A stretch of DNA of 63,828 nt, filler included, from Rozella allomycis CSF55 (taxonomy: Eukaryota): NCBI GenBank assembly GCA_000442015.1. It is 9 parts of 9 records of this genome, joined end to end, with 100 filler letters (N's around TTAATTAATTAA, not from the genome) between each part and the next. Parts side by side here need not be neighbours in the genome. Positions count along the whole stretch, not along the records: positions 1,839 to 9,262 come from KE561296.1; positions 9,363 to 30,023 come from KE561297.1; positions 30,124 to 33,472 come from KE561303.1; positions 33,573 to 35,057 come from KE561310.1; positions 35,158 to 58,417 come from KE561313.1; 4 more parts are not named here. One strand, 5' to 3'. Made by a program: the position numbers and the translations under genes. Each line of letters starts with the position of its first letter. The stretch's first letter is position 1. This document shows positions 1,942-53,375 of the stretch, in pieces. A model generated the notes under the pieces. The model saw only the letters and a list, made by a program, of their open reading frames with translations. It made no database searches and was not told the DNA's origin.

Positions 1942-2578
1942 TTAGTCTTTGGTTAATGAATTTAAATACTGATCATCTTCTTTTCGAACTTGTAAGAGTA
2001 GTCTCTCTGCCTGACCAGCCTGATCATAATAAAATTTGAAAACAGGGCTTCTTTTAATGTACATTTTGTTACTAACGATGAACCTGATTGTTTTGATGCT
2101 TTCATCTAGAGAATTTTGAATGATGTCCTGTATGTGTTAGAATGCTAGGCATTACTCTTGGGATGTCTGAGTCATCGTGTACAAAGTAACCCACCCTACA
2201 GCTTTGCAGATTTCTAGATATGGATACCTAATGCGATAGATGCAATTTGTTTTACCTATTGTGATTGATGCAGCGATAATACTTGAGTGATTTCCCAGAC
2301 TGGTTTAGCGAGAACTTCCATTGATTTTTGAGTGAACGTAGTTTGAGGGCTATAAAAAATGAATTCAAGATGTTTTTTTATTTCAGCTTGAAATCGTTTT
2401 TGGCGTACACTTTCAATTTCATGTTTGTTTGATTCCAAGTTGAATTTTTTACTGGAATGAAAGGAAATAGAGTTTACACTGAATAGGATTTGGTAGTGTT
2501 GGAGTATAATCTTGGGGAGAAAAGGGAATGAAAAGAGGAAAATGGGAAAAGAATGGATTGCCTATTTAAGTAAGACAT
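1942..2578 (-). CDS. RBFA: Mitochondrial ribosome-binding factor A (RbfA-like)
   Basis: Spliced product: presequence-like MSYLNRQSILFPFSSFHSLFSPRLYS, then RQKRFQAEIKKHL, EITQVSISRNLQSCRVGY, IRFIVSNKMYIKRSPVFKFYYD (RbfA pattern). Introns 2452-2477, 2256-2282 + 2228-2255, 2128-2155. Confidence 0.7.
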
Positions 2579-2596
2579 GAGAAGACCCTGGCATAC

Positions 2597-5189
2597 ATGA
2601 CCTCAGAGAAGCAGTTTAAAAATATAGTTGAGAGTTTGGAGAATATGAATTATAAGCAAGCGTTGAATTTGTGTAATAAAAGCTTGAAAAAGGATAGCAA
2701 GAATAATAGGATGTTGATATTAAAGGCGTATAGTGCAGCTAAAGTTGGCAAGGATGATGAGGCTGTGAAGGTGTTGGAGAGTATTCCTTTGGAGGCTGTG
2801 GAGGATGCGTATGTGATGCACTATGTTACAGTTTCATGCCGAGCGTTATCTAAGCCAGATTTGTTGAGTAAATATACGCAATACCTTTATGAAAAAAACA
2901 GCAAGGATGAGGAGCGAGCAGCGCAACATTTTTCGTCGCTTGTGCGATTGATGGATTTTAAATCGCAGCAGCAAGTAAGTTAAATTTAGACTATGGAATA
3001 GCTTGCGTTGAAGATGAATAAAACATTCAAGGAGCCAAGGTATGTGTATTGGATGATAGTGAGTGCCTTTTTGCAGAGTGAGAGTAAAGAGTCGATTGGG
3101 GTACAGTTGGCAGAGAAGATGTTGATGAAGTTGTTTAATGAAGGCAAAGTGCAAAATGCAGAAGGTAATTAGCGATTGATGAGAAATAAAGAATTTGGGT
3201 TGTTGCTTCTTGTGTTGGAAAAGATTGGCAAGTATGAGGAAGCAATGAAGTTGATTGAGAGTGAAAATGGATCTAAGCTATTTGAAAGCCAGGGGTTAGA
3301 AATAGAAAATGAAATGAGAAAATTTGAGTATTTGATGCAAACAAAGAGATATGAAGAGTTGTTTAAGAGGATTGTAGAGAGGATGAATGAAATGAGGAGT
3401 GAAGAAGAGTAAGTGATGTGATTGTGATTAAAAGGGTTGAGCAATGGACTATTTATTCTTATTTACTAAATTGTGTTTCAAATGTGAAAGAGAAAGAAAA
3501 AGAAGCGAAAGAAGTTTTAGAGGATTTAATTACGAAATTTCCTAAAGCGAGAGCACCATTGTTGGCCAAAATTGAATTTTGTAGTCTTTATGAAAGAAGT
3601 GAGTTTGTGAAGAGTGTTTTTGAATATTTGAAGGTTTATGGAGCGAAGCCATTTTGTTTTTATGATTTGAAGCCAGCGATTGTGAATATGAGCGCAGAAG
3701 AGAAATCAGAATTTCTTGAAAGGTTGAATTTAGACTTGAAAAGGGAAGAAGAGAGAGAAGGGGTTAAGGGGGAAGAAGTGAAAGGGGAACTAGTGAAGCA
3801 TGAAGATGTAAGTGAGCCTACTGTAGCAGATGAACCTACTCCTACTGTAGCAGGTGAAAGTGAGCCTACTGTAGGAGGTGAAAGTGAAACTACTGTATCA
3901 GGTGAACCTACTCCTACTGTAGAACCTACTACGGCTACTGAAGCTTCTGATGTCACAACTGTTGATACCCCTAATGAAGCTCAAAATGAAATTCAAATAT
4001 TTTGTCAAAAGGCCATGCTGGCTATCGCTGCAGAAGTAGATCCAGAAATTCTATTAAATAAATTGCAAAAATTGAATGTGAATGAAAATGAAGATTTAGC
4101 CACAATCTATTTTTTTGCTAAATTTAGAAATGGAAATTTAAATGTAAAAAATTTTGAATTGTTGAATGAATCTACCAAGCCACTAAGATCTATGAAAAAA
4201 TTAAATTTTTATTCAAAAATGATCTTGATTAGATATTATGCATTGATTGGCGATTACAAGAAATCTTATTCTCTGTTTAAAGAATTGGAAATCAAAAACA
4301 TTCAGCTGGACGCCCTCAGCTATTTGATCAGCGACATTATTGTTCATTTAGATCCATTCGACTCTGCTGAATTCTGTAAAAATGCTTTGGAAATTTACAG
4401 ATCTAATGACGCTGAAACCCCTGAATATATTATGAATGCTTATCTACAAGGGTCATACACCAGGGTGTTTGATTTCACTGAATTCTATTTTCATGTTGAA
4501 ACTTCAATCCAAAGAGAAGTCCTCGCCAGACAAGAATTAAGATGCAAACTAGTCCATGAAAGATCTCTAGATGAATTAGAAAAACTCTTGGCCCAAGATT
4601 ATCCTCTACAACTCTCCTACCAGGGTAATGGAAAAATAGATCTAAAATAGATGAAAATTTAGCACTTCTCACAGACACACGTGATTTAATGGCCTTTCCA
4701 AATTATCTACCAAATCTAATCTCACCTCTAATTTCCACAAAAGAAGTTTCAATCGAGTGGCTTAAATACTACGCCATCATCTTTCAATTGTTGCATTTCT
4801 CCATTGTAAATGACTCTGATAAACTAAATGAATTCAATTCTCTTCTCATTCAATTAAACTTTAGCCACTCTCAAGTATTCCCTTTAAATTAAATTCACCT
4901 AGTTCTTCTCAACTGTATTCGCTTATCGGTTGGATGAAAACGCTCTCATCGCTGAATTTCCATCTGCTGAAGATTCAATCGACTCTATTGAAGTAACGTC
5001 TTCTTTTTCAATTAATAGATTGTCTCTACCATTCTTTTGGCTTTAAGAGAAACAATCAAATCAAAATTATCGCCTAGAAGAAAATCTTCCATTCTCTCTT
5101 TACTAGACAAATGCAAATCATTCTTGCCAAAAGATTCACATCGTCATAAATGGATCGATTTCTATCTCAAACAAATTCAGTCTCAATAA
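2597..5189 (+). CDS. NAA25: NatB N-acetyltransferase auxiliary subunit (Naa25/Mdm20)
   Basis: N-terminal TPR-like region, DFKSQQQ, YGAKPFCFYDLK, ELEIKNIQLDALSYL; six canonical 26-28 nt introns. Confidence 0.9.
3808..3935 (+). repeat. Coding minisatellite (AGTGAGCCTACTGTAG / GAACCTACTCCTACTGTAG units) inside NAA25
   Basis: Encodes SEPTVADEPTPTVAGESEPTVGGESETTVSGEPTPTVEPT. Confidence 0.8.
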
Positions 5190-5424
5190 ATTTATACTAT
5201 TGTATTTTAAATATTTTAAATATTCTTTTTTAGAAAAGATAGCAATGAATATTCAAATGTCTTAAATGTATTACTCCTTCAGCTGAATATGTTTCAGTCA
5301 AATATAGTTTGCAACGATGAAATCATTGAAAAAATACTTTTTATTCAACTGCTAAATAAAGAATCAGCCATCATTAAATTGTTAAATGCTTGTATAGCCC
5401 AATAGTTTAAGAATTTATGCTAAC

Positions 5425-5672
5425 CATTTCTATAGGCATAACTTTGATCTACTCTTTCATCTGCAAGCAATAATTCAACAAAATCCGCATGACCTTTGTA
5501 GGAATCTCACTTTATACCATAATTTTTATTGGCACTTGGATCTACTCTATCATCTGCTAGCAATATTTTAACCACAGCCGCATGACCATTACGTGATGCC
5601 CACTTTATAGCATAGTTGTCATTGGCACTTGGATCTACTCTAGAATCTGCTAGCAACAGCTTTACAATGTCG
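5425..5672 (-). pseudogene. Ankyrin-repeat gene relic (LLLADxRVDPSA family)
   Basis: DIVKLLLADSRVDPSANDNYAIKWASRNGHAAVVKILLADDRVDPSA, followed by in-frame stops. Confidence 0.75.
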
Positions 5673-8600: not shown

Positions 8601-9963
8601 TGATAAGTTCAGAGCATTTTGGAGATTTTCATGACCTATGTTCATATGAATAGGCGACACGGATGTCCAGGAACCAACGCTATATATTAAAAATATCTCA
8701 AAACCTATGACGAATTGAGCATAAATATTCAGGCGACATTTGCTTTTCATTCACTTAGACCCTTCAGTTTACTTTACGCGTTCATAAAGACATGTCGGAG
8801 TTCAGTATTAAGCTAAACTCGGACTCAATATGCATCGGATTCTAATGTGGGCTGGACGATTAACCAATTCAAATTAACAGATACCGGAAGATAGAAAATC
8901 GCAGATTGACATTAAGGCATAACATTATTAAGCAAATTTTACAGCAAAGTTGGGTTTTTAAAATTGTGTTCTTTTTTTTTAATTATTGAATCACGAACTT
9001 CTTTGCTGTGACGACTCTAAATTGAGTTGAATGGCACATTGAGAACTTTTTGTTTGCTGTCAAACAAACACGCACATCGCAGTTATATGAATCGTGCTGC
9101 GTTGGAACATCTTCACTTGATCCAATGTCTTTTGTTGGGCATGCCAAGTTTTGTTTCATAATCGACATTCAAACTCAATAATAAACTTGAATTTATTTAG
9201 CGCCTTTCAGTTTAAACTGCTTGTGACTATCAAACCAATCAATTTTCATTTCTTTCGGATATNNNNNNNNNNNNNNNNNNNNNNNNNNNNNNNNNNNNNN
9301 NNNNNNTTAATTAATTAANNNNNNNNNNNNNNNNNNNNNNNNNNNNNNNNNNNNNNNNNNNNTCTGAAATGGCAGATCTACAACTGGTAAAGGATTTAAT
9401 AACCCTTAACATTTATATCTTTTCATGATTGAACCATTGACTTTTTAGAAATGTTCTACTGAATTCAAATGATAATAAAGTCAATTCAAATACCTTTCTT
9501 ACCGTTAGATTTAATGAATTTCATTTAGAAAAGTTTAATCTGAAAAATGGTAGTGGGGACAATGGATCACAATGTTATAACTAATAAACCTCTCTCAACA
9601 GAGATGTGGCATGTCTGTGGATAGGAATCAATTAATGCTCAGTTTCCCCTTTAAATCTCCTAAATGCATTTTAATAAAATCAATAGATCTATTCGAAAAA
9701 TTAAAATTGTTTTAAACATAATCAATATGTAAAGAAACATATTTAAATCTATCCCGTGAACATAACGTTCGAGGAAACATTACATTATTGCTATATAATA
9801 CTACGTTTTGCGCTGCATGTAAAGCCTTATCATGGTTTTCTAATGTTACATATGCTACCAACCCTTTCATGACCAGTTGCTCAATTTCGCCAGCAAAAGA
9901 ACTTCCCAATAAACAATTTTAATGATTCAAATAGTGTTCCGGCTTACCACCTACGGTAAGTTT

Positions 9964-10070: not shown

Positions 10071-13000
10071 ATGACTACCACTGAACTTTCTTCTACTACG
10101 TCTGGTCATGCTGATCTGCCAGCACCACGCACTCACGTCACTACGCTAACCATCGGCTGTCCCCTGAAAGGCCAAGAAAACTTTGAAGAATGGGCCTGCC
10201 AAATGAAAGTACTCTTAAAGGCACATCAACTGTGGGACAACAAGCAGGATAGTCCCAAAACCGAAAATACTCACGCACATCATGCCATCGTTAACAACCT
10301 TGACAAAACCTTGATTCACTTAGTTCTGGACACCGTTGACGCTTCTGATGCATGGGAACGACTTAAAAGCCAATACAAGAGTGAAAGCGTTCCTAGGAAA
10401 CTCAAATTTATTCAAGAACTTATTGCGCACGACTTTGCTATCGGTACTCTCGAAGACGGTTTTAATCGTGTGGCAACGCTTGAAAGAAATCTTACAGCAT
10501 CCAATGGCTCTGATAGTATCAAAATTACCGACCTGACTTTTCTCATTGGGGTCTCCGCTATCGTCATTATGAAAATACGAAAACTTGTGCAAACGTTTCG
10601 AAGACCAACGCAAAACCAGCTGCCATGCTTGCCGTCAAATGGGTGGCCGATTCTGGATGTTCTGACCACATGGTGAACAATAAAGATCATCTTGATTTTT
10701 ACGCTCCACAGTTAGAAACAATTCATGTAGCCAACGGTACTAATATGACTTCCGAAGGAACCGGATCAATGTCCTATCAAGCCAACAATTTTCAAGGCAT
10801 AATCAAAAACATAATACACTGTCCTTCACTTTCTCATAATCTGCGCTCTATAAGCGAATTTGCTGATCACGGTCTATCCACCATCTTTACGAAATCTAAA
10901 TGTTTGTTTTAAAAGGTAATATTGACGAATTCATAGCGGAAAGTTATGACAGAATTGTTCTGGAAGGTAATCGTGAAGATGCGCTGTACACACNGCTATC
11001 GTCATTATGAAAATACGAAAACTTGTAAGACCAACGCAAAACCAGCTGCCATGCTTGCCGTCAAATGGGTGGCCGATTATGGATGTTCTAACCACATGGT
11101 GAATAATAAAGATCATCTTGATTTTTACGCTCCACAGTTGGAAACAATTCATGTAGCCAACGGTACTAATATGACTTCCGAAGGAACCGGATCAATGTCC
11201 TATCAAGCCCACAATTTTCAAGGCATTATCAAAAACATAATACACTGTCCTTCACTTTCTCATAATTTGCTCTCTATAAGCAAATTTGCTGATCACGGCC
11301 TATCCACCATCTTTACGAAATCTAAATGTTTTGTTTTAAAAGGTAATATTGAAGAATTCATAGCGGAAAATTATGACAGAATTGTTCTGGAAGGTAATCG
11401 TGAAGATGCGCTGTACACACTTCAAACGGAGAAAATGCCGAAAGCAAGACACTACTCAACTTTGGCATAATCGGTTGAATCATATTAATTTTCAAGAACT
11501 AAAGTCACTGGGCTCACGAGTATTTGGATTGCCTCCGTTTACCAATGAAAACTTGAATTCTAATTCTTGCATTGCAGCAAAACAAAAGCGAAAACCTTTT
11601 CCGCATTCATCAACGACAACAACGTGTATCGGAGAATTAATTCACCACGATGTATCTGGCAAGTTTCAAGTAGAGGGAATGAATGGTGAGTTTTACTATT
11701 ACGCATTTTTAGATGACTTTTCAAACTTTCTTATTANTAAAATGCCGAAAGCCCTTCAAGCAAGTAAAGACACTACTCTACTTTAGCATAATCGGTTGAA
11801 TCATATTAATTTTCAAGAACTAAAGCCATTGGGCTCACGAGTGATTGGATTACCTCCGTTTACCAATGAAAACTTGAATTGTAATTTTTGCATTGCAGCA
11901 AAACAAAAGCGACAACCTTTTCCGCATTCATCAACGACAACAACGTGTATCGGAGAATTAATTCACCACGATGTATCTGGCAAGTTTCAAGTAGAGGGAA
12001 TGAATGGTGAGTTTTACTATTACGCATTTTTAGATGACTTTTCAAACTTTCTTATTATTTACCTTTCAGCAACCAAAGATCGTGTTTTTCAAGCTTTTGA
12101 AGAGATCAATAATCGCATTTTTAATCTAACTGGGCGTAATATACAATGTGTTAGGTCTGACAATGGAGAATTAAATTCAAAAGAAATGATTTCCTTCTGT
12201 AAGCAGAAAGGTATCCGCAGGGAGCTAACAGTTCCGTACACACCTCAGCAAAATGGTAAGGTTGAGCGAATGAATCAATCACTTTCAAACTGGCTTCGGG
12301 CAACATTATTTGAATCACAACTACCCTTAGAACTTTGGCCGGAAGCATTAAAGTACATAACGTATACAAAAAACATGACCGCAAAATCTAAAGACATCTC
12401 GAAGACACCCTATGAAGTTTNAAATTCACCACAATGTATCTGGCAGTAGAGGGGATGAATGTTGAGTTTTACTATTACGCATTTTTAGATGACTTTTCAA
12501 ACTTTCTTATTATTTACCTTTTAGCAACTAAAGATCGTGTTTTTCATGCTTTTAAAGAGATCAATAATCGCATCTTTAATCTAACTGGGCGTAATATACA
12601 ATGTGTTAGGTCTGACAATGGAGAATTAAATTCAAAAGAAATGATTTCCTTCTGTAAGCAGAAAGGTATCCGCAGGGAGCTAACAGTTCCGTACACACCT
12701 CAGCGAAATGGTAAGGTTGAGCGAATGAATCAATTACTTTCAAACTGGCTTCGGGCAACATTATTTTAATCACAACTACCCTTAGAATTTTGGCCGGAAG
12801 CATTAAAGAACATTACGTAAACAAGAAACATGACCGCAAAAATCTAAAGACATCTCGAAGACACCCTATGAAGTTTGGTTTGGGCGAAAACCAAACATTT
12901 CACACTTAAGACGGTTTGGCGACATTGGGTTTGTTCATCAACATAAATCCCAACGTCAGGGAAAATTGGCTCCACGTGGAAAGGAAATGGTATTTATTGG

Positions 13001-15135
13001 GTACAGTGAGGAAGCAAAAGGTTATAGGTTAATAGATATGAATACCAGAAAAATATTCATTTCACGCGATGTTCAATTTATTGGTGCAAGCTTCTTTGAC
13101 ACAGAAACTGAGGACAAACCTGAACTTCAAATTGATGACACAGATACGTTTTTCGACTCTAATTTCAGTAATCACATCAATAATGACAGTGCTTCTGACC
13201 CACACAATATCGATAATAGTGACATTACGGATGAACCGATTCAGCAACAATCTTTCTCCCATTTATATGAAATCTCGGAACGCAATATATTACCAGAAGG
13301 ATCCAAGCGTAACCGATCTAGAAATGAAATCCATCAGGTCTTCATGCTATCTAAACAAACTATCTCTGAAGCTCCAGAACATTATCGTGATATTGAACAC
13401 CGTGCAGTTAAAGAACTCTGGTATCAAGCTGTCAAAGAAGAATTTGATGGACTTAACTCTCATGGAACTTAGGAGCCCGCAAACACAGTTCCAAATGACA
13501 GGGTACCAATTGGCGGCCGTTNTAAAATATTTATTTCACGCGATGTTCAATTTACTGGTGCAAGCTTCTTTGACACGAAAACTGAGGACAAACCCGAACT
13601 TCAAAGTGATGACACAGAAACGTTTTTCGACTCTGATTTCAGTAATCACAGCAATAATGACAGTGCTTCTGACCCACACAATATCGATAATAGTGACATT
13701 ACGGATGAACCGATTCAGCAACAATCTTTCTCCCATTTATATGAAATCTCGGAACGCAATATATTACCAGAAGGATCCAAGCGTAACCGATCTAGAAATG
13801 AAATCCATCAGGTCTTCATGCTATCTAAACAAACTATCTCTGAAGCTCCAGAACATTATCGTGATATGGAAAACCGTGCAGATAAGGAACTCTGGTATCA
13901 CGCAGTCAAAGAAGAGTTGGATGGACTTAACTCTCATGGAACTTGGGAGCCCGCAAACACAGTTCCAAATGACAGGGTACCAATTGGCTGCCGTTGGGTG
14001 TTTAAATTAAAAAGGAACGCTGACGGATCAATAAGTAGATATAAGGCTCGTCTTGTGGCCCAAGGATATTCCCAGATTCCAGGTGTTGATTTTGAAAACA
14101 CTAATGCACCAGTCGCTTACAAAGATTCTCTGAGATTATTTCTATCTTTATCTATGATTTACGGCTTTACTATTGATCTGATGGATATTGTGCAAGCATT
14201 TCTTATTCCAACCCTAACTGAAACAATTTTCATGAAAATTCCGGAAGGTCTGAACCAGATAAATTCGCCGTGCCTACGTCTAAAGAAGGCATTATATGGG
14301 CTGCGACAGGCGCCANATAAAGAACTCTGGTATCAAGCTGTCAAAGAAGAATTGGATGGACTTAACTCTCATGGAACTTGGGAGACCGCAAACACAGTTC
14401 CAAATGACAGGGTACCAATTGGCTGCCGTTGGGTGTTTAAATTAAAAAGGAACGCTGACGGATCAATAAGTAGATATAAGGCTCGTCTTGTGGCCCAAGG
14501 ATATTCCCAGATTCCAGGTGTTGATTTTGAAAACACTTATGCACCAGTCGCTTATAAAGATTCTCTGAGATTACTTCTTTCTTTATCTATGATTTACGGT
14601 TTTACTATTGATCAGATGGATATTGTGCAAGCATTTCTTATTCCAACCCTAACTGAAACGATTACCATGAAAATTCCGGAAGGTCTGAACCAGATAAATG
14701 CGCCGTGCCTACGTCTAAAGAAGGCATTATATGGGCTGCGACAGGCGCCAAAATGTTGGAACGAGGAAATTGACTCATTTTTAAAAGGTATAGGGCTCAC
14801 TGCTTCGTACATGGGCTGCGACATGCGCCAAAGCGTTGGAACGAGAAAATTGACTCATTTTTAAAAGGTATAGGGCTCACAGCTTCTACAATCGATCCCT
14901 GCATTTATGTGGGTAAAGTGAATGATGAACTATTTTTGTTGGGACTCTATGTGGATGACATCATAATTGCAGGAACTCCAGAAACCAAGAAGATTATTTT
15001 GAAGTAAAAGATTTGGGGACAATGAAGTATTGTCTTGGTTTTGAAGTTGAACAACACCCTGAACAACATTATTTAATTATGCATCAAAATTCGTTTATTG
15101 AAAACTTGCTACGAATTACCGGGATGGAAAATGAA
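10071..15135 (+). pseudogene. Copia gag-pol fragments (gag, protease, integrase, RT)
   Basis: ENFEEWACQMK gag; WVADSGCSDHM protease; LWHNRLNH..C..C; VRSDNGE..PQQNGKVERMN integrase; RYKARLVAQG and LYVDD RT; stops, frameshifts and overlapping duplicates at single n joins. Confidence 0.92.
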
Positions 15136-15261
15136 TCAATAAACTCCGTGGAGATTAATCCTCCGGTTACCTACCAATTACCAATTCCAATTCTTATGTC
15201 TTCTGATTCTAATTCACCAGTTAACGTCACCTATTAATATCAGAGCTACAGGAGCTTAAGN

Positions 15262-15640
15262 CAATACTTTCATGTAATTTTACCAACGGAAGGTCCAAAA
15301 AATTTTGAATATTCAACACCATTAGAGAGTCTAGGTAACACAGGGCCTGTTTATAAAATTGATGGTATTCTCAACTTGTCACGGAAGATCTTGCACAATA
15401 TATGTACGACTTGTGTTTCGGGACCCTAGTAATAGAAATAATTCGCGACAAACTCAAAATACAACAAAAGAAAAATATTTTATTTAGTCAAATGGAAAGT
15501 ATGCGAGAATCGTGAGGCAAAATGGGAACCTTTGGAAAACATAACGGATTGCATGGAGAGTGTGTATGATTTTCATATTAGGAACAAGAATAAGCCATGT
15601 CCAAAATCACGCGATTTCTTGAGAAACCTAGCTATATAAT
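15262..15640 (+). mobile_element. Ty3/Gypsy chromovirus fragment (integrase C-terminus and chromodomain)
   Basis: YFYLVKWKVCENREAKWEPLENITDCMESVYDFH chromodomain, preceded by an FHV motif. Confidence 0.7.
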
Positions 15641-20483: not shown

Positions 20484-21882
20484 TTACTTTTTCACGCAAT
20501 CAATGTGTGTCAAGTCTTGTGACAAATCGTCCAACTCTCTCCTCAACTGGTAAATCTCATTGACCAAATCTCGATTATGCATCTTTAAAAGATCCACCGT
20601 ACTTTCGTAAATTGCGAATTTTCGTTCATAAACTGTTTTGTATGCTGGATTTGACGAGTCTGTATTTAATTCGTTTAGTTCTTCTGAAATTCCAGTTTTA
20701 ATATCATGCGAGACATCAATATTCTTGACACGATTTGATATTAAAGTTATTGGCGCATCATCGTCAAGCGATGAGCAAGTTCTCTGTTTGTAATCGCCAC
20801 ACTTATACCATTTCAATCTATTATCTGTAAGATTTAAAATATAATGCATAAACTCTTGAAAAACCGGGTTGGTTGATTGCGATATGTAGTCCAAAATTCT
20901 TCCAATACACGGCTTCCTTTGTTCGTTAAGGAGCAACAACAATGCGCCCAACATTCTGTCGAATGATTCTTCGGAACTAGGTAGTTCAAGATAGTCGAGC
21001 ATAAAGAGGCCCAAATTATAGTATCGCTTAGAGAAGACTATTTTGAGATCGTCGACGACAATTTGTGCACTCTCNGGGTAGTTCAAGATAGTCAAGCATA
21101 AAGAGACCCAAATTATAGTATCGCTTAGAAAAGACTATTTTGAGATCTTCGACGACAATTTTTGCACTCTCCTTGCTTTTCAGGATCCAAGGAATTAAAG
21201 GAATCAAATGTATCTCTTGTTCTCTATCCAGTAACGTTTCAATGTTCATTCTATTAAAGGGACTTTGAAAAAAGTCGTATGGATTGTTTTCTTGTAGATA
21301 ATTCACAATTCTTGTGTTAAACAAAAAATCAAGTTTATGCCAACGATTCGCAAAAAACACAGTCAAAAACAATGTAGAGTAGTCAATCTTGTTATGGGAT
21401 TCAAAAAACTTTCCCATTGCGGGCTCTTCCTCCTCAAACGTTATCATATCAATTGCAATAGCAGTTTGAATTTTGGCATCATCAAACACATGACCATTCA
21501 TTATAAAAAATTCTATCGAAGACCAATAGTTATTCAAAGTTTGAAAATACATATTCTTGATGCCATCAAAAAAGCGGCTAAATAAAGAGTTTCTTTCATC
21601 AGGACGAAGTTCTTCATAAATTTTTTTCAACTTGGGTTCTTTACTAGAATCTAAGAGTTCTCCTAGTAGTTGGTCAATTTTCTGCTCATTGGATATCGAA
21701 ACTTCGTAGACATCAGCGGGATCGATTCTTTCATTTACTAAAACGGGATCTCCCTCTGCCGAAGATCCTGAAACTAAATTAGACTGTGCCGATAGAACCT
21801 CGGGAACAACACCGCCCACTTGTTCATTGTTTTGTAAAGACCCCAAAACCAAAAACACGAGGATTAAGAAATACTGGTGCAT
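20484..21882 (-). CDS. Orphan secreted protein (one gene, split by a duplicated join at n21075)
   Basis: Signal peptide MHQYFLILVFLVLGS; the two ORFs share ESA.IVV.DLKIVFSKRYYNLGLFMLDYLELP. Confidence 0.7.
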
Positions 21883-21948
21883 CGAATTTAGATGTGGCTA
21901 AGACTTTCCCGGCTGATAACAAATCAAAGGACAATGACTTGGATATTT

Positions 21949-22389
21949 TTATTGCTTTCGAAATTGTCTAAACTTTCTTTTCAATAGCTTTACAAAAGGA
22001 TTGCAATAGGTTGGAGTTGACTTTTGTTCTGATTCTACATTAACGTTTTTGTTATTTGGTGAATCTGGATTTTCAGGCACACAAGCATTATAGTTTCCAA
22101 GTTCATAGTTATCATCGATATTGGGACGACGCTTGTTGACAAATATGGACACATCGCCACTTGATGTTGCATCGGTTCCGTCGCTATCATAAAAACCAAT
22201 ACTTGGTGATCGTGTCACAATTTGAAATTCACATTGATTTAAATGCAAGGGCTTTTCTGTATCTTCATGATCAAAGGAAGGATATTCTTCCACGGCTGAA
22301 AAGAACGTGCATAATTTAGATTCTGACGAAGACTCAATCATAATAGAAAGATCTGTCGCTGTTCTATTATTTAATTCGGAACTCGACAC
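21949..22389 (-). CDS. Hypothetical protein (start uncertain, next to an n-join)
   Basis: 146-aa open frame, no ATG seen. Confidence 0.4.
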   Translation of the reverse strand: MSSSELNNRTATDLSIMIESSSESKLCTFFSAVEEYPSFDHEDTEKPLHLNQCEFQIVTRSPSIGFYDSDGTDATSSGDVSIFVNKRRPNIDDNYELGNYNACVPENPDSPNNKNVNVESEQKSTPTYCNPFVKLLKRKFRQFRKQ

Positions 22390-22527
22390 ATTAAAAANTT
22401 TAAATCGGAACTCGACACATTAAAAATTGAATTTGTAACCAAGATATAGAATAGAAGTAGCATTTGGATAGTGGCTTTGCTGCCTGCTGACGGTATAAAC
22501 TTGTCAAAAATACATTAAATGAGAAAT

Positions 22528-23319
22528 TTATTTATTGAGGTGACGAATTTTGCTCTTAACCGACTTAGAAACCTTAGCCATCTTTTTCAAGGCCGATTTC
22601 AAAATAGATTTTTTATCTTTCTTCTGATCAACAATTGAATCAATATCAATTTTTGATTTTGTGATTAATGGGCTAGTAATGAAAAAGTTCGGTTTTTGAT
22701 GTTCTATCGCTATTTCGTCGGTTTGTATGCACATTTCCTTCTTATGACTATTTTCCTCGGTCTGGACATCCGCGCATGTTCTTGATGGCTGATCCGTTTG
22801 AATGCCTTTGTTGACTTTTGTCTTTAGTTTCTTTATATTCACCTCTTTGTACTCGGGAATTCGGTAATTCATTGGGACATCAGGAATGTAGTCCCTGATT
22901 TTATCATCGCGTGGAATTTTAATATCCTGCGGAACATTCTTTTCTACCAATTCCAGACATCTATTTATTCCGGACAAAATGTCTTCAGCTTGATTCATGA
23001 ACAAATTGTCTTGAACTTTGATCAAGCTAGATAAAGAGATAGTGCCAGAAAGTTCATTTAGCATCTCTTGGACCCTAGGGAACTGAACATGGTAACAACT
23101 TTCCTCTGCTTCTAAATACGCTTGTGACAAAGGATCGAAAGACTGTTGAACTTTCAAGGGAGCGTCTACTTTTTCTCTTTTTGCTTCTGAAGCTATCTTA
23201 TAGTTGACATAGTCTGGATTCGGAATTATACATGCCAGCGTGAAGTTTACCAACTGGAAGAAAAAAAATACCCACATTGCGGTGGCGTAGTTTTTCATAA
23301 ACCTCATACCCATGTCCAT
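22528..23319 (-). CDS. Orphan secreted protein with basic C-terminus
   Basis: Hydrophobic N-terminus WVFFFFQLVNFTLA; intronless. Confidence 0.65.
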   Translation of the reverse strand: MDMGMRFMKNYATAMWVFFFFQLVNFTLACIIPNPDYVNYKIASEAKREKVDAPLKVQQSFDPLSQAYLEAEESCYHVQFPRVQEMLNELSGTISLSSLIKVQDNLFMNQAEDILSGINRCLELVEKNVPQDIKIPRDDKIRDYIPDVPMNYRIPEYKEVNIKKLKTKVNKGIQTDQPSRTCADVQTEENSHKKEMCIQTDEIAIEHQKPNFFITSPLITKSKIDIDSIVDQKKDKKSILKSALKKMAKVSKSVKSKIRHLNK

Positions 23320-23424
23320 GGAACAAACGTTAAGTAAATTAGGGGAATTAGAAGNAACGTAAATTAGCCAGTCGGAATAGGGGGATTAGGGTTATTAAGA
23401 TAAGATAACTTTTGAAATTAGCAT

Positions 23425-25020: not shown

Positions 25021-25204
25021 TTGTTTAGCTGTATCGGCACAATCTCTGTGCCAAAGATACGAGCAAAGTATAAAGCTAAGAATAAAAGAGTATAAAATAA
25101 TTAAAATTTATTTGAAATATGCTGCTGATCTAGTAAAACAATGTGTCTGAATCGCTCTCATTTATTGCCGATAGTCGTCTTTTACCATCCTAATAGTCCA
25201 CTAA

Positions 25205-30123: not shown

Positions 30124-31288
30124 TCATAAAGAATGTTGACATTTATTTAGCGCCAACAAGCAATTACCTGAGACCAAGCCACCGCCTTAATGCTTCGACC
30201 ATCACGCCCGTCTTTTAAAGTTTTAAGCTCCAAGCCCGAGTATTTAAAAGCCTGTAACACACACCTCTATCCATCAAAACCTCTTCCAAATCCTAAGCGG
30301 AACAACATTATCAAGGAAATAATCTCGACTGAAGAATCATATATTCACCAACTGGATACAATTATTCAAGTAGATTTACAGCAAACGTGTTATAGGGATT
30401 CAAAAAGAATTTTGAAATATTGAATAACGTCACCCCGGAAATGGTAGACTCACTGTTTAGCAATATTGAACAAATATATTCGTTTCATGTTAGTCTGCTG
30501 GTAAAAATGAAAGAATCGGGAAACGATCTTTTAAATGTATTTCTGCCCATGGAAGATGACGAATGGATAGAATTGTACACCATTTATTGCAATAATTATA
30601 CCAATGCAATCAAAACTCTGGAAAAGTATTGCCAGGATCCGCATTTCAAGGCATTCTTTCTCGGATGCAGATTGTTAATGTCACAGGAAATATCACTGGA
30701 AGGATATTTGTTGGTGCCAATTCAGAGGATATGTAGGTATCCACTCTTGTTGGCAGAAGTTTTGAAAACTTTTGATGAAAATGATCCTCTGTATACAAAG
30801 GCTTGGATGGCCAAGGAACGTGTGAAAAGACTGGCAGAGTTGGTGAATGAAGCGAAGAGGAGGGAAGAGAATGAAAAAAGATTTCTTCAATATAAGGATT
30901 TATTTGATATCGAAATAGTAATTTAATTATTTTTAATCGATAGGATTTCACAGGAAACAACCAGCTAATTCAACTGTCAAGCGCTAAAAAGATTTCACAC
31001 AGAAAAACACAAACCAGACTTTTGTTTTTGTTTAATAACATTCTGGTTTACACAAAACCACTCTCAAGAAAAAAATATTCTGTTAGAGGAATAATTCCAT
31101 TGGACCAGCTGGCTGCTTTTGATGTTGCTGATGGAACTAATTTGTATGGAATTGAGCTTCATAATGCATGGAGATTAGAAAGAAACGATACTCTTTATCC
31201 TAAAACGTATCACGTAATCATGTCAAGTCAAAAAGAAAAATCTGATTTCCTTTCGAGGCTAAAAGAGGCCCAAGAGTTACTTTCGTAA
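30124..31288 (+). CDS. Dbl-family RhoGEF (DH-PH)
   Basis: EIISTEESYIHQL, LFSNIEQIY, LLVPIQRICRYPLLL, FLFNNILVY; two 26-nt introns. Confidence 0.88.
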
Positions 31289-31354: not shown

Positions 31355-31765
31355 CTATTGCTGAAACGGATTTGGAATTTCCTTCATTCCTTCGACGGGA
31401 CTAATCACAATTATTTGTGTTCCACGACACACAACCAATCCCAAATTTCTTTTTTTCTCTGTTATAACGTTTAAATCAGATGGATCTTAGTTGACAAACA
31501 GCAAAAATGGTATTACCTCGCATAAGTTCAACTGTGTCATCCAAAACTAAATTCATCAAATTATCATGACCTTTTAAAACACCTTGAACTATTTTTAATA
31601 TACAATAAATTAATAACCTTCTCTTCCTCCATGAAATTTCACTCGTATCATTTTATTTTCATATTTTTGGTATTCCAATATGCTTTCACGCTTTTGTGGT
31701 TCTTGTTTCCTTCCAGTACCTTGATTTCTACCAGTCCCGCGACCTCTGGAATTCCCGCTACTCAT
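31355..31765 (-). CDS. LSM7: U6 snRNA-associated Sm-like protein LSm7
   Basis: IRVKFHGGRE|VQGVLKGHDNLMNLVLDD...LGLVVCRG...NPF; two introns; absent from the ORF track. Confidence 0.92.
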
Positions 31766-33472: not shown

Positions 33473-33572
33473 NNNNNNNNNNNNNNNNNNNNNNNNNNNN
33501 NNNNNNNNNNNNNNNNTTAATTAATTAANNNNNNNNNNNNNNNNNNNNNNNNNNNNNNNNNNNNNNNNNNNN

Positions 33573-33897: not shown

Positions 33898-34996
33898 CTA
33901 TTTATTAAATTTCCATAATTTTATACTCTTGTCACCATCAGTCGAACCCGATGCTATCAATAAATTGGATGAACATGCATCCACCGCTAAAACAGGCCCT
34001 TATTATATTGAAATGTAAAAAAAATAATACCTGAGTGGCATTCAATTACAAATGAAATACTTTTTGATTGTAAATCCCATATGTAAAATTTGTTTTCATC
34101 AGACCCGCTAAGGACAAATTGTGAATTATCGTCAGCAGAGAAAAATGTTGAATAGCAACAGAATTTTTGATTTTTATGACCTTGATATGTTTTAATTGGC
34201 TTTGCGGCTTGAACATTCCATAATCTAATCTTGCTATCTAGAGATGAAGACAGGAGATATTTTCCGTTTGGCGAAAATTTCACATGAGATCTATTTTAGC
34301 ATAAAGAGGTGGTTACAATGGTGGGTTATCATTATCAATGAAGGTTTTGAGACAATTCCCGTTAGAGGAGTCCCAAATTCTAATAAGTCCATCATAACTG
34401 CATGAAGCAAGAAGGGTGCCATCCGGTGAATAATCTAGTCCTGAGACAGGATCTGCATGTGCGGGAAGTGTATTTAGACATTTATCTGATTATTGAGCTA
34501 AAATACAATAAATACTTCCTAGTGTATCCCAAATTTTAATAGTCTCGTCAAATGAGCCAGATGCTAACAAAGTTGATGCTGGATTAAATGCAACGTTGAA
34601 CACGTAATTATTGTGCCCGGAAAATTCTCTGATGCAAGATGACTATATTAAGAAATTTAACTATTTAATTACTGTTCTTTTATCCCAGACCATAACTCTA
34701 GCATCATCTGAAGCAGAGGCTATAAAATTCCCATCCCTTGACCAGCACAAATCTGATATTCCCTGTAAGTGACCTTTTAACGTCGCTGAACAATTTAAAG
34801 TTTCAGTGTCGGTTAATTTAATTTCTTTATCAGTGGCTATATCACAATGAGAAAGAAGGCTACCAGATGAAGCAATGAGATTTCCTTGAGGACAAAACTT
34901 AATGCAGGAAATGGAGCCTTCGTGAATATTCAAAGTATTTAGTATTGTTAAAGATTGTGTATTGTTTGTTCGGCTATGATAGAATGTTGAATTCAT
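33898..34996 (-). CDS. WDR5: WD40 protein WDR5/Swd3 (COMPASS)
   Basis: [47 protein letters not shown]; five short introns. Confidence 0.88.
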
Positions 34997-35532
34997 AGGA
35001 ACTGTGCCACCATCGTTGAATACGAAGAGTATTTAGCTCTGAGACAATTTTATGGAANNNNNNNNNNNNNNNNNNNNNNNNNNNNNNNNNNNNNNNNNNN
35101 NTTAATTAATTAANNNNNNNNNNNNNNNNNNNNNNNNNNNNNNNNNNNNNNNNNNNNAATACCTCCCCGTCCAGTTAACGAGCACTGCGAGACTTGTCAT
35201 TTGAATAATCAAGTACAAAAACCAGTCCTATCCTTTTCTGCATTTATAAAGATGGAATGGATGCTGAACTGAATCATTTTATTTCAAGTAAAGTTGGTCA
35301 CTTCTCTCATTTGGAAACGGATTTCTGTCAATCCATTCGCATTGATCTCATGACTAGGCACTTCTAATTTTACGAGTAGAGCATACATATGATGTGCCAA
35401 TAAGATGAAATTAAAAAGGTAGGTATCATAAATAGATGGGCTTGGATATGTAATTAGACTTCATAAAAAGCCTATTAGCAAATTTAAACAAGCGGATCTA
35501 CATAAAGAAATTGATTAATTTATTGACTGCGA

Positions 35533-36106: not shown

Positions 36107-38839
36107 TTAAGTTATACGACGAATAGTAGCAGTTTTCTTTTTGACTGAGCCAGATATTTGAATTTGAGAATCATCTTCCAATTCACGTAGAGCTTCATGG
36201 AGTGCTGCTTCGGTAATAGGCTAGTTAAATAAGAGGGAAATGATTACAATAGTAGATTGAGCTTGAAGATCAGATAGAAGCTGATCAAATTTAATTTGTT
36301 TTGAAGATAGATTTGATATGATAGCAGAGCGTAATTTTTCCAAGAGATCTCTAGAAGCTGAACTTCTTCCAGTGGTGATTAAATCCATGTCTATTCTTCC
36401 GGTTGAGGGATCAATAGCATAGTGAAGAAGAGCGTTTTTAACAAGACGAAGGGCTTCTTGGACATCTTCAACATCAACAGACAAGGACAACCTAGTTAGG
36501 AATGTGAGAATGAGATACCTTGCTTTTGCATGAGCTTCAGATAAACGAATGAGAGATTCTAATTGTCTTGTTGTGGCACTAACAGTTTTTCCAGACCCAT
36601 TAACTTTTCTCATAGAGACGTAAGATTCCACCAATAAATCAGAAGCGTCATCAGAAATTATTGGTTTGATGTTTTCTCTTGCATAGGAAATAAAAGTTGT
36701 TAATTTGTTTATTGGCTATTAATGATAAAAGGAAATATATTACGATTGTTCCTTTGGTGATATTGTTGTAATCTTTAGTGTATAAAGAGATTAAATGATG
36801 TGCCAATCTTCTGTCAGTTTCAGCAGAGGGATTATCTAGCAAGAGATAGATTAGATCAAAGCGAGAGAGAAGAGTTGGTGGGAGATTTAGATTTTCTACG
36901 ATTGATTTATTTGTGTTGTATTTAGAATCAACAGGGTTAGCAGAAGCTAGAACAGAAGTTCTTGCGTTGAGAGTAGCAATGATGCCTCTCTTAGCAATGG
37001 AAACAGTTTGTTGTTCCATCGCTTCATGTAAAATAGCTCTTGTTGAATCAGACATTTTATCAAATTCATCAATACAACAAATACCACCATCGCTCAAGAC
37101 TAGAGCACCACTTTCTAAAACAACTTGATTTGTTTCTGGATCTCTTGTAATGTAGGCAGTCAATCCAACAGCTGAAGATCCTTTGCCTGAAGTGTACATT
37201 CCTCTTGGTGCCAACTTGTGAACATATTGTAATAACTGTGATTTTGAAACACCAGGGTCACCAGCTAATAGAATATGAATATCACCCCTGAATCTTGAAT
37301 TTCCATTTCTTTGAAATAATTTTGAAGTTCCACCAAACAATTGAAGCAACAAACCTTTCTTTATATCTTCCAAACCCCAGATAGATGGAGCCAAAGATTC
37401 ACTTAATGTTTCATACAGATTTGGAATTTGTTTAATTTCATTTACTATTTCTTCAACTCTTTCTTTTTCTTGAATCATTTCTTCTTCGTGGATTGTTAAA
37501 TAATCACTAGTGGTCATTTCTTCTTGAATCAATTTCATTCTATTATTCAATCTCTTCTTTATATGCAACACATCCAAATATGTTCTAAAAATAGATTTCA
37601 TCGTCCTCATTCTCGGATTCACCCTCACCGGCGCTGATCTATACATCCCCGTTATCTCTATACGATCGCCAGGCCTCACAACATCCACCAAACTATCATA
37701 CACCATCAATGTAACTGTATGCGGTGTCTGCCCTTCTGGTATTTCATCTATTCTAAACTTCACACTATATCATTACCAGGGGTTTCTTGCAATCTAATAA
37801 TTTGTTTATCTGCAAAAATACATCTGTTATGAACAAGAATCATACTGTCTGGACTGTTACATCCATCATTGGGGCACTTAGATGGCTCACTTATAATACC
37901 CTTGTTAATCTCAACATTCATTCCAAATCCACACACACAACATTGAAAATATCCTATTATTATCTCTACTAATTTTTACCTTGACGCATATCTGGAATAA
38001 TCCCACTGCATCGGATAACAAGCCCTTTAACAGACACTAAATTATCAATATCATTGGGATCCAATTGTCTCATATTAGCAACCTTCTCCAAATTAAACGG
38101 TCTAACTTGAATAACACCTCCATTTTCTCCACTATCGTACATTCTGTCATACAATTCATTAGTCACCGTGTCCATAATCGCAATAATCTCTTGCGGAAAT
38201 GCAATCAATTGTTCATAAAGCTCACTTGTCTCTTCCCACTCTCTCAAATCATTCGTATCAAGCGACAAATGATATATCTCAGTTTCATGTATCTGTCGCA
38301 ACATCTGCACATACACACCTTCCCCTCCTGGAACCGCCTTGTATCCCACAAAAAATGACTTGAATGTATTATACACTTTATTATATTGTATATCAGTTCC
38401 CCATATAACTCTAACACCTTCAGGATGCTCTTCCTCCACCTGCATCGTTTCTCGCATTTCAGCATCTAATTGCTGTCTACGTGGCACTCTATTAGACATC
38501 ACACTCTCAAAACTATATATCCATCTTACTTGTTGTTTTCCTCACTTTGCATTTGAGGTAAAGAACTCACAAATCCGTCAGCCAAGTCTGGGCGTCGTGC
38601 TGAACTCGCTGGCTCCCTAGCTGACGACGATAATCCAGGATAAACTAGTGGAGACGAATTTCCATCCATCTTATCACTCACCATATTTGCTATTTTCTTT
38701 TAAGGGTGCACAGTTACCATCTGTATTCGCTCCTTCATTTTGGTTTTTACTGCTTGCAATGCTTGCTTCAGAAAATGGCATATTATCTATGTCATTTTTA
38801 TATCACAGTTTTACTTGTAGAAGGATCCGTATTAACCAT
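36107..38839 (-). CDS. MCM4: DNA replication licensing factor MCM4
   Basis: [42 protein letters not shown]; about seven 26-29 nt introns; start inferred. Confidence 0.95.
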
Positions 38840-41486: not shown

Positions 41487-42211
41487 TTATTGGACATATT
41501 TGCTCATAAACTTTCTATGAAAATCGCTTCTTATTAGATCGTTTATAAATCTCTTTTTTGGTTTCTGGTCGCTTCCTCGGGCTTGATTTTTAAATATGAC
41601 ATCATCATACCACCTTTAGTCTTAAATTAGTTTTACCATTACTTTTTCTTCAATTTTCCCGTATCTTGATTCAAAAGTGGATTCCCAATCATCGCTCTAT
41701 TTGACTTTTCTCTTTCTTCTCTTTCTAATTCCTCCAATGCCAGCTTTCCTTGCTCTTTCTTCCTTTCTTCTTTGATTTTTTCTAATTCTTTTAACAATTC
41801 TGCGGTATCATCTTCCTCTTCAGCAGAAAAGTCACTATCGTCATCACTGGATTCGTCATCGTCTTTATCCAAATCGAGAATTTCAGGACTTATTTTCAGT
41901 TTTTTATTCGCGGATGTGACTTCAGTTTCTACAGATGAACTTTTGGTGTCTGGTTTTTCGTTTAATAGAAGTGCTTTTAAATCTCTGGCTTGTATTTCAG
42001 CTTTGGTATTTTGGCCTGGTTGTCTTTAATATAAAAATAAATATTTTGGTACCTTAACTTTAATTTTGTGTGAGCAGCCATATCTCTTGCACCAAATTGC
42101 CTTGTAGGAGGTAAACCTTTTTGATCTCTGATGCTATTTCCTCCAAGAGCGTTTGTCCAACTAAATTTAAAGCGAAGGAATATGATACGTTGGTTTATGA
42201 GCAGTTGTCAT
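41487..42211 (-). CDS. CWC15: Spliceosome-associated protein Cwc15
   Basis: [44 protein letters not shown]. Confidence 0.93.
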
Positions 42212-45103: not shown

Positions 45104-46533
<1,430 letters not shown>

Positions 46534-47033: not shown

Positions 47034-47076
47034 CCAACGGAGACGAATTTTACAATTTTGATTGCAAATTTACAAG

Positions 47077-50038: not shown

Positions 50039-51787
50039 TTATTCAATTATTTCATACGACCATATTCTTGCTCTACAGTCACCCGATCCAGTTGCGAAAA
50101 GCGAGCCATGAGGACTTTGCGTCACTGAAATCACTAGATGAAAATAGAAAACACATTGTACCAGAATTTTTATGACCTTGAAGAATAGCATGCATTTCAG
50201 CCGTCTGAGGATCCCAAAATTGAACCCTGAATAAAGTCAAAGGATAATAGTTACGATCTGTCTTTGGATCCAGATATGGCCCACATTCCATCATTTGAGT
50301 ACGCAACAGAAAGAACATAATCTTTGTGTCCTTCAAATGTGTGCTTGCAAGCGTCTTTGATTTCAGAGTTTAAATCCCAAATTTTTAAGGTTTTATCAAG
50401 AGATCCAGACAAAATCATCTGACCGTTAGGGGAAAACGCAACTGAATAGACAGAATCTTTATGTCCTTCAAGTTTATCAATCGGCTTTCCACTTTCTGCG
50501 TCCCATAATCGAATCGTTTTGTCGAGAGAGCCGGCGGCTATTAACGTTCCATCGGGACTATACGCTACTGATGTTATTCCGCCCTCTTTTTGACTTCCAT
50601 CGTCACTAGAAAGAATATGAACAGCCTATAAATATATCTAAAAATTATTACTTCCCCAGATTCAACGTCCCAAATCCTGGCAGTCCTATCGCCACTTCCA
50701 GATATGACGAAACGTCCATCTTTCGAAAACTCCAGGGAATAAATATCTTGCTCATGACCGTGAAATATTTTCTTTAGTGTCTTTTCTTCCAAGTCCCATA
50801 TCTATTAACAATTTTTTTTTCGAAAATTTACCCTAACTGCCTTATCTTCAGCCCCGGTAGCAAGAAATTTGCCATCTTTACTGAAAGCCACAGATCTGAT
50901 GTATAAATCTCCTTCTCCAGCATTTTCATCTTCTAATACACTCTCAAAATTTATAATATCCCTTACGCTATCTTATCACCAGTTTCAACATCAAATATTT
51001 GAGTTGTTTTATTACAACCGGTAGCTAAAAATTTGGCATCATCACTAAACTTCACACAGCACACTACACTCAAATGATCAATCGAATGATGTAATTCAAT
51101 GTTAATTTTTCGTGGCATATTTGGATTGTATCTATTGGAAAATAATATTAAGCGTTACATGACATTCCAGTCATTTCCCTCTTTTTTATGAGTAGTAGGA
51201 ACTTGGCTCGGGTCGATATTATGAAAAAATGATTTCTTTGGATCAGGCAAAGCCTTCACAACTTGGGGTTGTGACTTTGGCACCATAGGTTTCACAGGAA
51301 ATGTTGGTGGTACAGAATTTGATTGAATATCTTATTAAAAATAAATACAATAATTTACTTGACGCTGGTAAAGAAGGCAGAGAAACTGACGATGAACTTT
51401 CTTCCAACCTAGGGCGTTTTAGGGTTACTGCTGGATCTCCCCCTCTCGCTTCTAGTTCTTTTTTTAATTTAAATATTTCGTCCTCATATCTTAAAAAATC
51501 AGACTCTACATTTTACTGTTGTTTCATTTTTAGATGAGCTCTCTCCAGCTCATAGACGTTTTTTTGGATCTGGATAATTTCATTTATTTGAGATTGAACT
51601 AAAAATAAGACAGACTATTTTTACATACCTAGAACTACTAAAAATATCAGCAAGTACCTTTATGTTCAAAAGATTCTCGTTGCACCGAAAGGTCTTGTGT
51701 AGATGTCTCATATTCCTGTTTTAGTGAATCCAATAGCTCATAAAAACGACTGGCTGAAGTTGTAGCCGCTGGCCGATGCCCATACAT
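50039..51787 (-). CDS. TUP1: General transcriptional corepressor Tup1
   Basis: Tup_[38 protein letters not shown]40 repeats; includes twin introns 51599-51657. Confidence 0.92.
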
Positions 51788-52068
51788 GTTCTTACCCTTG
51801 TCAAAACATTCTCACGCGTTGATAAATTTTTTTTCAGTGATCTAATTAGTCTCAAATTAAAATTTGGGAAATATATTTATCTCCAGAATCTCTAAAGACA
51901 AATTCCTTTTACAACATCTTGTAGTGCTAAATATTTCTACTATTGACATCGACCTTAAATTTAGAGTGAATTTTTTATATTTTAATTAATCCAATTCGTT
52001 TAATTTATAATTTTATTGTCTATTTTGCCCCGGTTTTGTACGGGCTAAAGTATCTTGAAAATTCGCAA

Positions 52069-52569
52069 ATGACAAGACCAACTGAGAAAAGGCATGTTTC
52101 GAATGGCCAAAGAAGCGATGACAGAAACTCAAATTTTCAAAATAAAAGAAGAATATTTGTGGATAATAAAAAAAGTTTGAGTGAGAGGTAAAGAATTAAT
52201 CATCTTTAATATAGGTAAATACCTTAGTAGTTACTTGAAAGGTTCCAGTCAGTTTCAGAGGAGCGTCGCAAAAATATGATAAGTAGAAAACGCGATAGGT
52301 TTTCAGTACCTGAAAAAATGCCAATGAAAAGGGACTTGAGGCCAAGAGGCTCGAATTCAAATTTTCACGGCAGAGGAAATTTTAGAGGTTCATCAAGTGC
52401 ATCAAGAAGCAAAAATCTATCCAGAATCTCGAGAAATAATAAAATGCCTCTTGACAAAGAAAAGCTCGATGCGGATTTAGACAAATACATGATGAAAAAT
52501 GAGAACTTCGCAAAGGCAAAGCTAGACGAAGAGTTGGATAATTACATGGCTATGGACGAGAAAGAATAA
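52069..52569 (+). CDS. CHTOP/FoP-duplication RNA-binding protein
   Basis: SLSERF motif after splicing, RG-rich middle, duplicated LDADLDKYM/LDEELDNYM. Confidence 0.75.
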
Positions 52570-52633
52570 ATAAATGCCAATTTTTACCAATCTTCTTTGT
52601 TTATTTTGTTACTTCGCCACATTGACATAAGTT

Positions 52634-53375
52634 ATGCATTTATTTGGTAGGGCGAAGCCAAAAAGCACTCCTAAAGATGCTATAGCAACTCTAAGAGATG
52701 CACTGGAAATGTTAGATAAACGAGAAAAACACCTTGAGGTGAGGTATAATAATGAAACAAAAATGGCCCAGCAAAATGCTAAGAATAAAACAGGTAAAAA
52801 CATTTTCCCTCAAATTACACAGGTAAATTAAAACCTCTTAAGTTAGTTAGTGGCTCTAATGGCGCTAAAACGCAGAAAACAAATCTCAAATGAAATGGCC
52901 AAGGTTTCGGCGTCCAAAATGTCTTTAGAAGCACAAATGATGACGTTGGAAAATGCGAATCTGAATCTGGAAACCCTTAAGGCAATGAAGACAGGTTCTG
53001 AAGCACTGAAAAACATCCATGGTGCCATGTAATATATTCTCAAAGCTGTTATTTAGGGATATAAACAAGGTAGATGCAACCATGGATGAAATTCGGGACC
53101 AAATGGATATTGCCAATGAAATTTCTGAGGCAATCGCACAACCTCTTGGAAATGTTCTTGATGAAGACGAGCTATTAGAAGAGCTAGAAGAATTGGAGGC
53201 CGAAGCCTTGCATCAAGAAATGACTGAAAAGCCCACAACTGTCCCTAATCTACCTAAACCTGGTAATAGTCGATTATTTCATATTACAACAGTTAAAGTC
53301 GGACAATCCTCATCTGAGGAGAAGTTGGAAGATGAAGATGCAGAATTAGAGTTACTACGTGCATCCATGACTTAA
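52634..53375 (+). CDS. SNF7: ESCRT-III subunit Snf7/Vps32
   Basis: AIATLRDALEMLDKREKHL, ALKRRK, DKVDATMDEI, DEDELLEELEEL. Confidence 0.93.

Follow-up and report, generated by a model that had tools for sequence, protein, structure and literature searches.

Four introns of 54-59 nucleotides (nt) in a window of Rozella allomycis CSF55 DNA, by which we mean the whole stretch of ~64 kilobases (kb) that was analyzed and to which all counts below refer, each consist of two complete micro-introns of this parasitic fungus that abut without an exon between them. These composite introns are found in an RBFA-like gene (2228-2282, minus strand; 27+28 nt), in TUP1 (51599-51657, minus strand; 29+30 nt), in a CHTOP-like gene (52188-52241, plus strand; 27+27 nt), and in the SNF7 (ESCRT-III) gene (52794-52850, plus strand; 29+28 nt). 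At 55, 59, 54, and 57 nt, respectively, all of them exceed the band of lengths that single introns occupy. The sequence YAG|GTA marks the boundary between the units in 4/4 cases, 27-29 nt from the 5′ end, leaving a zero-nucleotide exon between them. All eight units are 27-30 nt long, and each has a GTA donor (GTAA in five, GTAT in two, GTAC in one) and an acceptor (TAG in six, CAG in one, AAG in one) of its own. Their scores with a splice-site position weight matrix (PWM) lie between the 5th and the 100th percentile of 64 single introns, i.e., inside the normal range. The GTA donor, NAG acceptor, 24-35-nt length, and in-range score of an ordinary Rozella micro-intron were thus found in 8/8 units.

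On the minus strand, the 5′ unit of the RBFA-like composite (2256-2282; 27 nt) pairs a GTAT donor with a TAG acceptor (16th PWM percentile) and its 3′ unit (2228-2255; 28 nt) pairs GTAA with TAG (27th percentile). The TUP1 composite is made up of a 5′ unit at 51629-51657 (29 nt; GTAC donor, TAG acceptor, 5th percentile) and a 3′ unit at 51599-51628 (30 nt; GTAT donor, TAG acceptor, 8th percentile). On the plus strand, the CHTOP-like composite has a 5′ unit at 52188-52214 (27 nt), which holds the top PWM score of all introns, and a 3′ unit at 52215-52241 (27 nt). In SNF7, a 5′ unit at 52794-52822 (29 nt) is followed by a 3′ unit at 52823-52850 (28 nt), for which an alternative acceptor 4 nt upstream would give a 24-nt unit. 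The reading frame stays open only when both units are removed, at 4/4 loci, and removal of one unit or of neither leads to a stop codon 2-24 codons after exon 1. These observations agree with an earlier note on the same DNA, which had placed introns of 54-59 nt with a central YAG|GTA and halves of 27-30 nt in these four genes and had held that both halves must go. Its further proposition, that longer introns are built of modal-size units, is borne out in that all four are two complete units with no exon between, set against a narrow band of single-intron lengths (standard deviation, SD, 2.0 nt).

The window has a G+C content of ~35%, follows the standard genetic code, and carries fungal-looking genes, among them EF3 with a chromo domain, MCM, a NatB subunit, a Ty1/copia reverse transcriptase, TUP1, and SNF7. 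A frame-continuity screen returned 50 confident GTA-starting introns with a length mode of 26-27 nt. Genes were modeled from codon log-odds and a splice-site weight matrix together, in runs of the modeler that either penalized long introns or left them unpenalized. Curation gave 64 single introns, all of 24-35 nt (mean 27.9, SD 2.0), with the donor GTAA in 54/64 and the acceptors TAG in 31, AAG in 21, CAG in 9, and GAG in 3. One more single intron, in TUP1 (50134-50161), was spotted by eye and is backed by a WD40 match of the last exon. This makes 65 single introns, with a mean of 27.9 nt; the earlier note had given 25-32 nt for almost all that it modeled. When the shortest in-frame reading was taken, no intron of 36-53 nt or of >59 nt was found among 69 intron positions; apparent introns of 100-148 nt proved to be fusions of neighboring genes. 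In published work, the introns of Rozella are mentioned in passing as short (~30 nt) in the available text of one study (PMC6349667), and the available text of another gives 29 bp as the lowest fungal median intron length, with the naming of the species placed in its supplementary table (PMC8042348). The narrow 24-35-nt band suggests that intron recognition is tuned to that length. Internal exons (n = 43; median 177 nt) all measure 45 nt or more, which sets the zero-length class apart from them. An in-frame stop codon occurs in 17/17 single introns with a length divisible by three (a raw count, taken from 61 single introns of known phase), which fits surveillance of intron retention by mRNA decay.

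That the composites are removed exactly, leaving nothing of the inner site in the mRNA, is best documented at SNF7 and TUP1. The SNF7 gene (52634-53375, plus strand) contains the composite and one 28-nt intron (53029-53056). Homologs were found with exon 3, and the spliced models were aligned to 30 of them, all fungal; removal of the 57 nt gave a gapless alignment to 30/30. An in-frame, stop-free alternative, with a 24-nt intron at 52823-52846 (plus strand) and the 5′ unit read as coding, was the choice of the modeler when long introns were penalized, and it was rejected since the 11-residue insertion that it creates is present in 0/30 homologs. The TUP1 gene (50039-51787, minus strand) has the composite as its first intron, followed by eight single introns of 26-30 nt. 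Here, residues 14-42 of exon 1 match positions 1-32 of the Pfam profile Tup_N and residues 1-26 of exon 2 match positions 35-60. The two hits abut on the profile, so that there is space at the junction only for residue 43 and the split codon. TUP1 (from 51787) and the CHTOP-like gene (from 52069) stand head-to-head, 281 nt apart, and thus share only a very short upstream region.

For the CHTOP-like gene (52069-52569, plus strand), which has a FoP_duplication domain in exon 2, the spliced model is identical, letter for letter, to the 148-amino-acid protein of both public annotation sets (O9G_004650 / EPZ31076.1 and ROZALSC1DRAFT_27490 / RKP21067.1). The coding score of its exon 1 is positive only in the frame used (+4.7 vs. 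-6.1 and -25.1). The RBFA-like gene (1942-2578, minus strand) has four exons. The composite separates exons 2 and 3, and the two single introns occupy 2452-2477 (26 nt) and 2128-2155 (28 nt). The match to RbfA lies in exon 4 (NCBIfam NF001799, E = 4e-5, model positions 72-106; Pfam PF02033, E = 0.024), and as it covers only this part of the family, the earlier part must be encoded upstream. A phmmer search with exon 4 against 1.84 billion representative proteins gave 0 matches, no database protein of at least 94 residues scored with exon 2, and comparison with solved structures returned nothing relevant. Exact removal is shown by homology for SNF7 and TUP1 and by identity with the public models for the CHTOP-like gene, and it is less firmly indicated for the RBFA-like gene, where retention of no nucleotide follows from frame continuity only. 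The public gene models at the SNF7 and RBFA-like composites may be missing or truncated: among public proteins of at least 185 residues, none was fully identical to SNF7 exon 3, the best match having 87% identity over 29% of the query. Composite introns may break gene callers. The RBFA-like gene (from 2578) lies head-to-head with the NatB gene (from 2597), at a distance of 18 nt, again with very little upstream sequence in common.

A conditional comparison was used to ask how often the inner boundary would arise by chance: the removal of a 54-59-nt intervening sequence was taken as given, and a YAG|GTA split was then looked for. Simulation predicts a central YAG|GTA, with each unit 24-35 nt long, in 0.58% of cases; it occurs in 4/1243 (0.32%) of the real GTA..AG stretches of 50-64 nt, and it was seen in 4/4 composites. 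None of 300 random windows attained the combined score of the two CHTOP-like units. Among the coding stretches that abut single introns, 0/64 passed as a further unit, and a modeler that allowed composites found no fifth one in the window. In three of the four genes, the composite is the first intron. Three of the composites lie in adjacent genes; the probability for that particular trio is P = 0.015, a value that loses its significance when the selection of the trio is taken into account.

The best reading of this arrangement, and one that we hold to be somewhat more probable than all others together, is that splicing takes out the composites in two consecutive reactions, across a zero-nucleotide exon. 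Both reactions would be ordinary U2-type reactions, as at zero-nucleotide recursive splice sites. Under intron definition, each donor would be paired with the nearest branch site and acceptor, and one unit would be spliced first. If this were the 5′ unit, exon 1 would be joined to the GTA of the 3′ unit, and if it were the 3′ unit, the inner YAG would be joined to exon 2; in either event a normal intron (of 27-30 nt in the former case) would be left, and a second reaction would take the remaining unit. Either order would yield the same mRNA and two small lariats. This reading is favored because each unit has full donor and acceptor signals, because nearest partners pair under intron definition, and because a length of 55-59 nt lies >13 SD from the mean of the narrow single-intron band. 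It is favored also because the outer sites are not brought closer together by RNA folding: a search at the four composites found no stable fold that would do so (z = -0.93 to +0.37).

A number of points weigh against removal in two reactions. Fungal spliceosomes generally remove introns of 50-60 nt in one step. The sample of 69 intron positions is small, and the modeler that penalized long introns was biased by doing so. Without the penalty, it yielded three false composites. The first, in a WDR5-like gene (33999-34060), is really a 32-nt intron, as the WDR5 propeller profile reaches residue 85/86 of the preceding exon. The second, in CWC15 (41582-41642), is really a 29-nt intron, the next 31 residues being positions 204-234 of Cwf_Cwc_15, and the third, in LSM7 (31459-31516), is really a 31-nt intron, one of its supposed units being coding according to Pfam. 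The bare two-unit pattern occurs five times in the window, compared with ~2.1-2.25 times per random window. Its fifth match lies antisense to SNF7 exon 3, and only the CHTOP-like and SNF7 patterns score above the level that random sequence often gives. The units of TUP1 and of the RBFA-like gene score low (5th-27th percentile), and a search of the introns defined no branch-site motif, so that the completeness of the units rests on donor, acceptor, and length. Exon 1 of the CHTOP-like gene has no homolog match, which leaves its junction without residue-level homology support. The RBFA-like junction is in the same position and relies on frame continuity, exons 2 and 3 having given no homology match in profile, protein, or structure searches.

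To these points must be added three introns for which a longer, in-frame reading exists that has no inner AG|GT. They are found in the MCM gene (38489-38529, minus strand; 41 nt with a TAG acceptor vs. 26 nt with the rare GAG acceptor), in a RhoGEF-PH gene (30918-30964, plus strand; 47 nt vs. 26 nt), and in a kinase gene (56465-56524, minus strand; 60 nt vs. 27 nt). All three lie in unconserved protein regions, so that homology cannot choose between the lengths. At a fourth position, in TTL (45502-45558), the long reading was rejected and a short, 27-nt intron confirmed.

The strongest competitor, which we regard as unlikely yet serious, is removal in one step. The outer donor would be joined directly with the outer branch site and acceptor, a single 54-59-nt lariat would be released, and the inner YAG|GTA would be a historical by-product that is not needed. 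In other fungi, spliceosomes cope with introns of 55 nt in one reaction. For a complex intron of L. starkeyi, the available text of a published study reports removal in either one reaction or two (PMC7138796), and this weighs against two-step removal in Rozella as well. The exon edges, considered below, also fit a gain at a proto-splice-like boundary, which a one-step history would accommodate. What speaks against a single step is that, in 4/4 composites, the inner sites are complete and normally strong and that nearest-partner pairing under intron definition favors them. Moreover, there is no firmly supported intron of 36-53 nt among the 69 positions, which would be odd if 55-59 nt were readily spliced. 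A recent duplication as the source of the inner sites is excluded, because the two halves of a composite resemble each other no more than introns paired at random do.

This last result bears on how the pairs arose. When the two units of each pair were aligned, their scores did not stand out from those of 1711 randomly drawn intron pairs (p = 0.08 for RBFA and 0.42, 0.55, and 0.42 for the others), and birth by recent tandem duplication is excluded on that basis; an old, now diverged tandem duplication is a possible origin if the composites are removed in one step. At 4/4 composites and 16/64 single introns, either the exon before the intron ends in AG or the exon after it starts with GT (Fisher's exact test, one-sided p = 0.006, post hoc). 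Of the origins considered, the gain of a second unit where the edge of an exon and that of an existing intron make up an AG|GT boundary would fit these flanks best, although the flanks give no more than a hint of it. Among the checks named in the earlier note was one for an ancestral micro-exon in alignments of orthologs: the SNF7 alignment is gapless in 30/30 homologs and Tup_N is continuous across the TUP1 junction. As neither junction loses a residue, deletion of an ancestral micro-exon is unlikely.

It is improbable that the layout is a device for regulated or alternative splicing, yielding unproductive half-spliced transcripts or variants such as an SNF7 protein with 11 additional residues. 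The 24-nt alternative in SNF7 is indeed in frame and free of stops, and every half-spliced form has an early stop, as would be expected of targets of nonsense-mediated decay. The SNF7 insertion is absent from all 30 homologs, however, and an early stop on retention is shared by the 17/17 multiple-of-three single introns and is thus not special to composites. Least probable of all is that gene-model errors or chance matches to a loose motif account for the four, wholly or in part (e.g., a CHTOP-like protein that starts at a downstream ATG, or a mis-joined RBFA-like gene), for in spite of the frequency of the bare pattern in random windows, its chance match antisense to SNF7 exon 3, the three false composites, and the unmatched RBFA-like exons 2 and 3 and CHTOP-like exon 1, SNF7 and TUP1 are fixed by homology, the CHTOP-like exon 1 codes in the used frame alone, with a composite score unreached in 300 random windows and two concordant public annotations, and the RBFA-like exon 4 requires an upstream part to which only double removal keeps the frame.

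Removal in two consecutive reactions would relate the composites to two known systems. Zero-nucleotide recursive splicing takes place at ratchet points, known from Drosophila Ubx and ~200 other sites (10.1101/006163), and AG|GU zero-nucleotide recursive sites act by successive splicing in long introns and are described, in the available text, for long introns only (PMC13149111). In the Rozella composites, too, an acceptor AG is followed directly by a donor GT with no exon nucleotide between, and the proposed removal would likewise proceed segment by segment, with one site serving as acceptor and then as donor. Ratchet points differ in that they subdivide very long introns on the kilobase scale, whereas the Rozella composites total 54, 55, 57, and 59 nt and each segment is a micro-intron of modal size. 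The second system consists of the complex intervening sequences of fungi, among them stwintrons, which like the composites are nuclear intervening sequences of more than one U2 intron unit. According to the available text of Flipphi, Fekete and co-workers, they are removed by consecutive standard U2 reactions, the smallest intron first (PMC7138796), so that removal of fungal complex introns by consecutive reactions has already been described. Stwintrons are nested rather than tandem, as the earlier note had correctly said: an internal intron interrupts the donor, branch site, or acceptor of an external one. In Rozella, by contrast, the units abut and no signal is interrupted; removing either unit leaves the other unchanged, and either could go first.

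Uniformly tiny introns of ~25 nt are known from Paramecium and Nyctotherus (PMC5014332, PMC2633312, as far as the available text of each goes). Rozella resembles such genomes of the Paramecium type in a very narrow band of lengths within 20-35 nt and in the in-frame stop carried by every multiple-of-three intron (17/17 in Rozella). It differs in its double-length, two-unit introns, of which the available text of four papers on tiny-intron genomes makes no mention (PMC5014332, PMC2633312, PMC6349667, PMC8042348). A literature search for zero-nucleotide exons, for abutting, tandem, or composite introns, and for recursive splicing with tiny introns found no description of abutting micro-introns, with a remark in James et al. 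(2013) or in supplements being possible. Term searches of recent papers on very short introns (2026) likewise found no abutting micro-introns. Pairs of abutting micro-introns thus appear to be a variant, apparently undescribed, of both recursive splicing and fungal complex introns.

Composites make up 4/69 intron positions (5.8%; 95% confidence interval 1.6-14%), and the count of four cases in 64 kb given by the earlier note is right. If the window is typical, this fraction, together with the intron density published for Rozella (2.53 per kb of coding sequence; PMC8476143), would imply hundreds of composites genome-wide. A bolder proposal, which goes beyond removal in two steps and which we put forward only tentatively and would sooner doubt than accept, is that the Rozella spliceosome acts as a length ruler with an upper limit of ~35 nt. 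Longer introns would then all have to be chains of abutting modal-size units (~6% of positions, several hundred genome-wide), removed by obligatory recursive splicing of the zero-nucleotide kind and gained preferentially at the AG|GT of existing introns. Should the reading of two consecutive reactions be true, recursive splicing would not be confined to very long animal introns and would extend to the smallest scale on record, in a fungus basal to the lineage that leads to microsporidia. It would also demonstrate directly that a spliceosome can be limited in intron length from above and not only from below, which is a long-standing question in tiny-intron genomes. It would bear, too, on intron gain, the flanks hinting at gain at existing intron boundaries. 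Public sequence reads were also searched. A metatranscriptome run, mapped at 80% likeness, gave only unrelated conserved fragments (mostly <90% alike; from MCM and others) and no intron joints, the run being without this sequence, and a metagenome scan with EF3 found 30 loci, the best of them 62% identical and none close enough for a comparison of introns.

Several other features were seen along the window. Blocks of 44 N, 12 bases, and 44 N occupy positions 1739-1838, 9263-9362, 30024-30123, 33473-33572, 35058-35157, 58418-58517, 59607-59706, and 61749-61848, and there are 18 single N letters, most of them in the interval from 10.9 to 26.4 kb. On the plus strand, ~10900-15300 holds the remains of a Ty1/copia-type retroelement (RVT_2, E = 2e-79), in which the frame is broken many times and a 38-nt stretch is repeated at 13977 and 14412. 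On the minus strand, six consecutive intronless open reading frames (ORFs) of 131-476 codons at 20484-26437 have no Pfam match and may be lineage-specific genes. Finally, an intronless ORF of 433 codons at 53590-54888 (plus strand) gave a weak, sub-threshold match to AA9 (lytic polysaccharide monooxygenase; E = 5.6e-5, 23.6 bits vs. a cut-off of 27.8).

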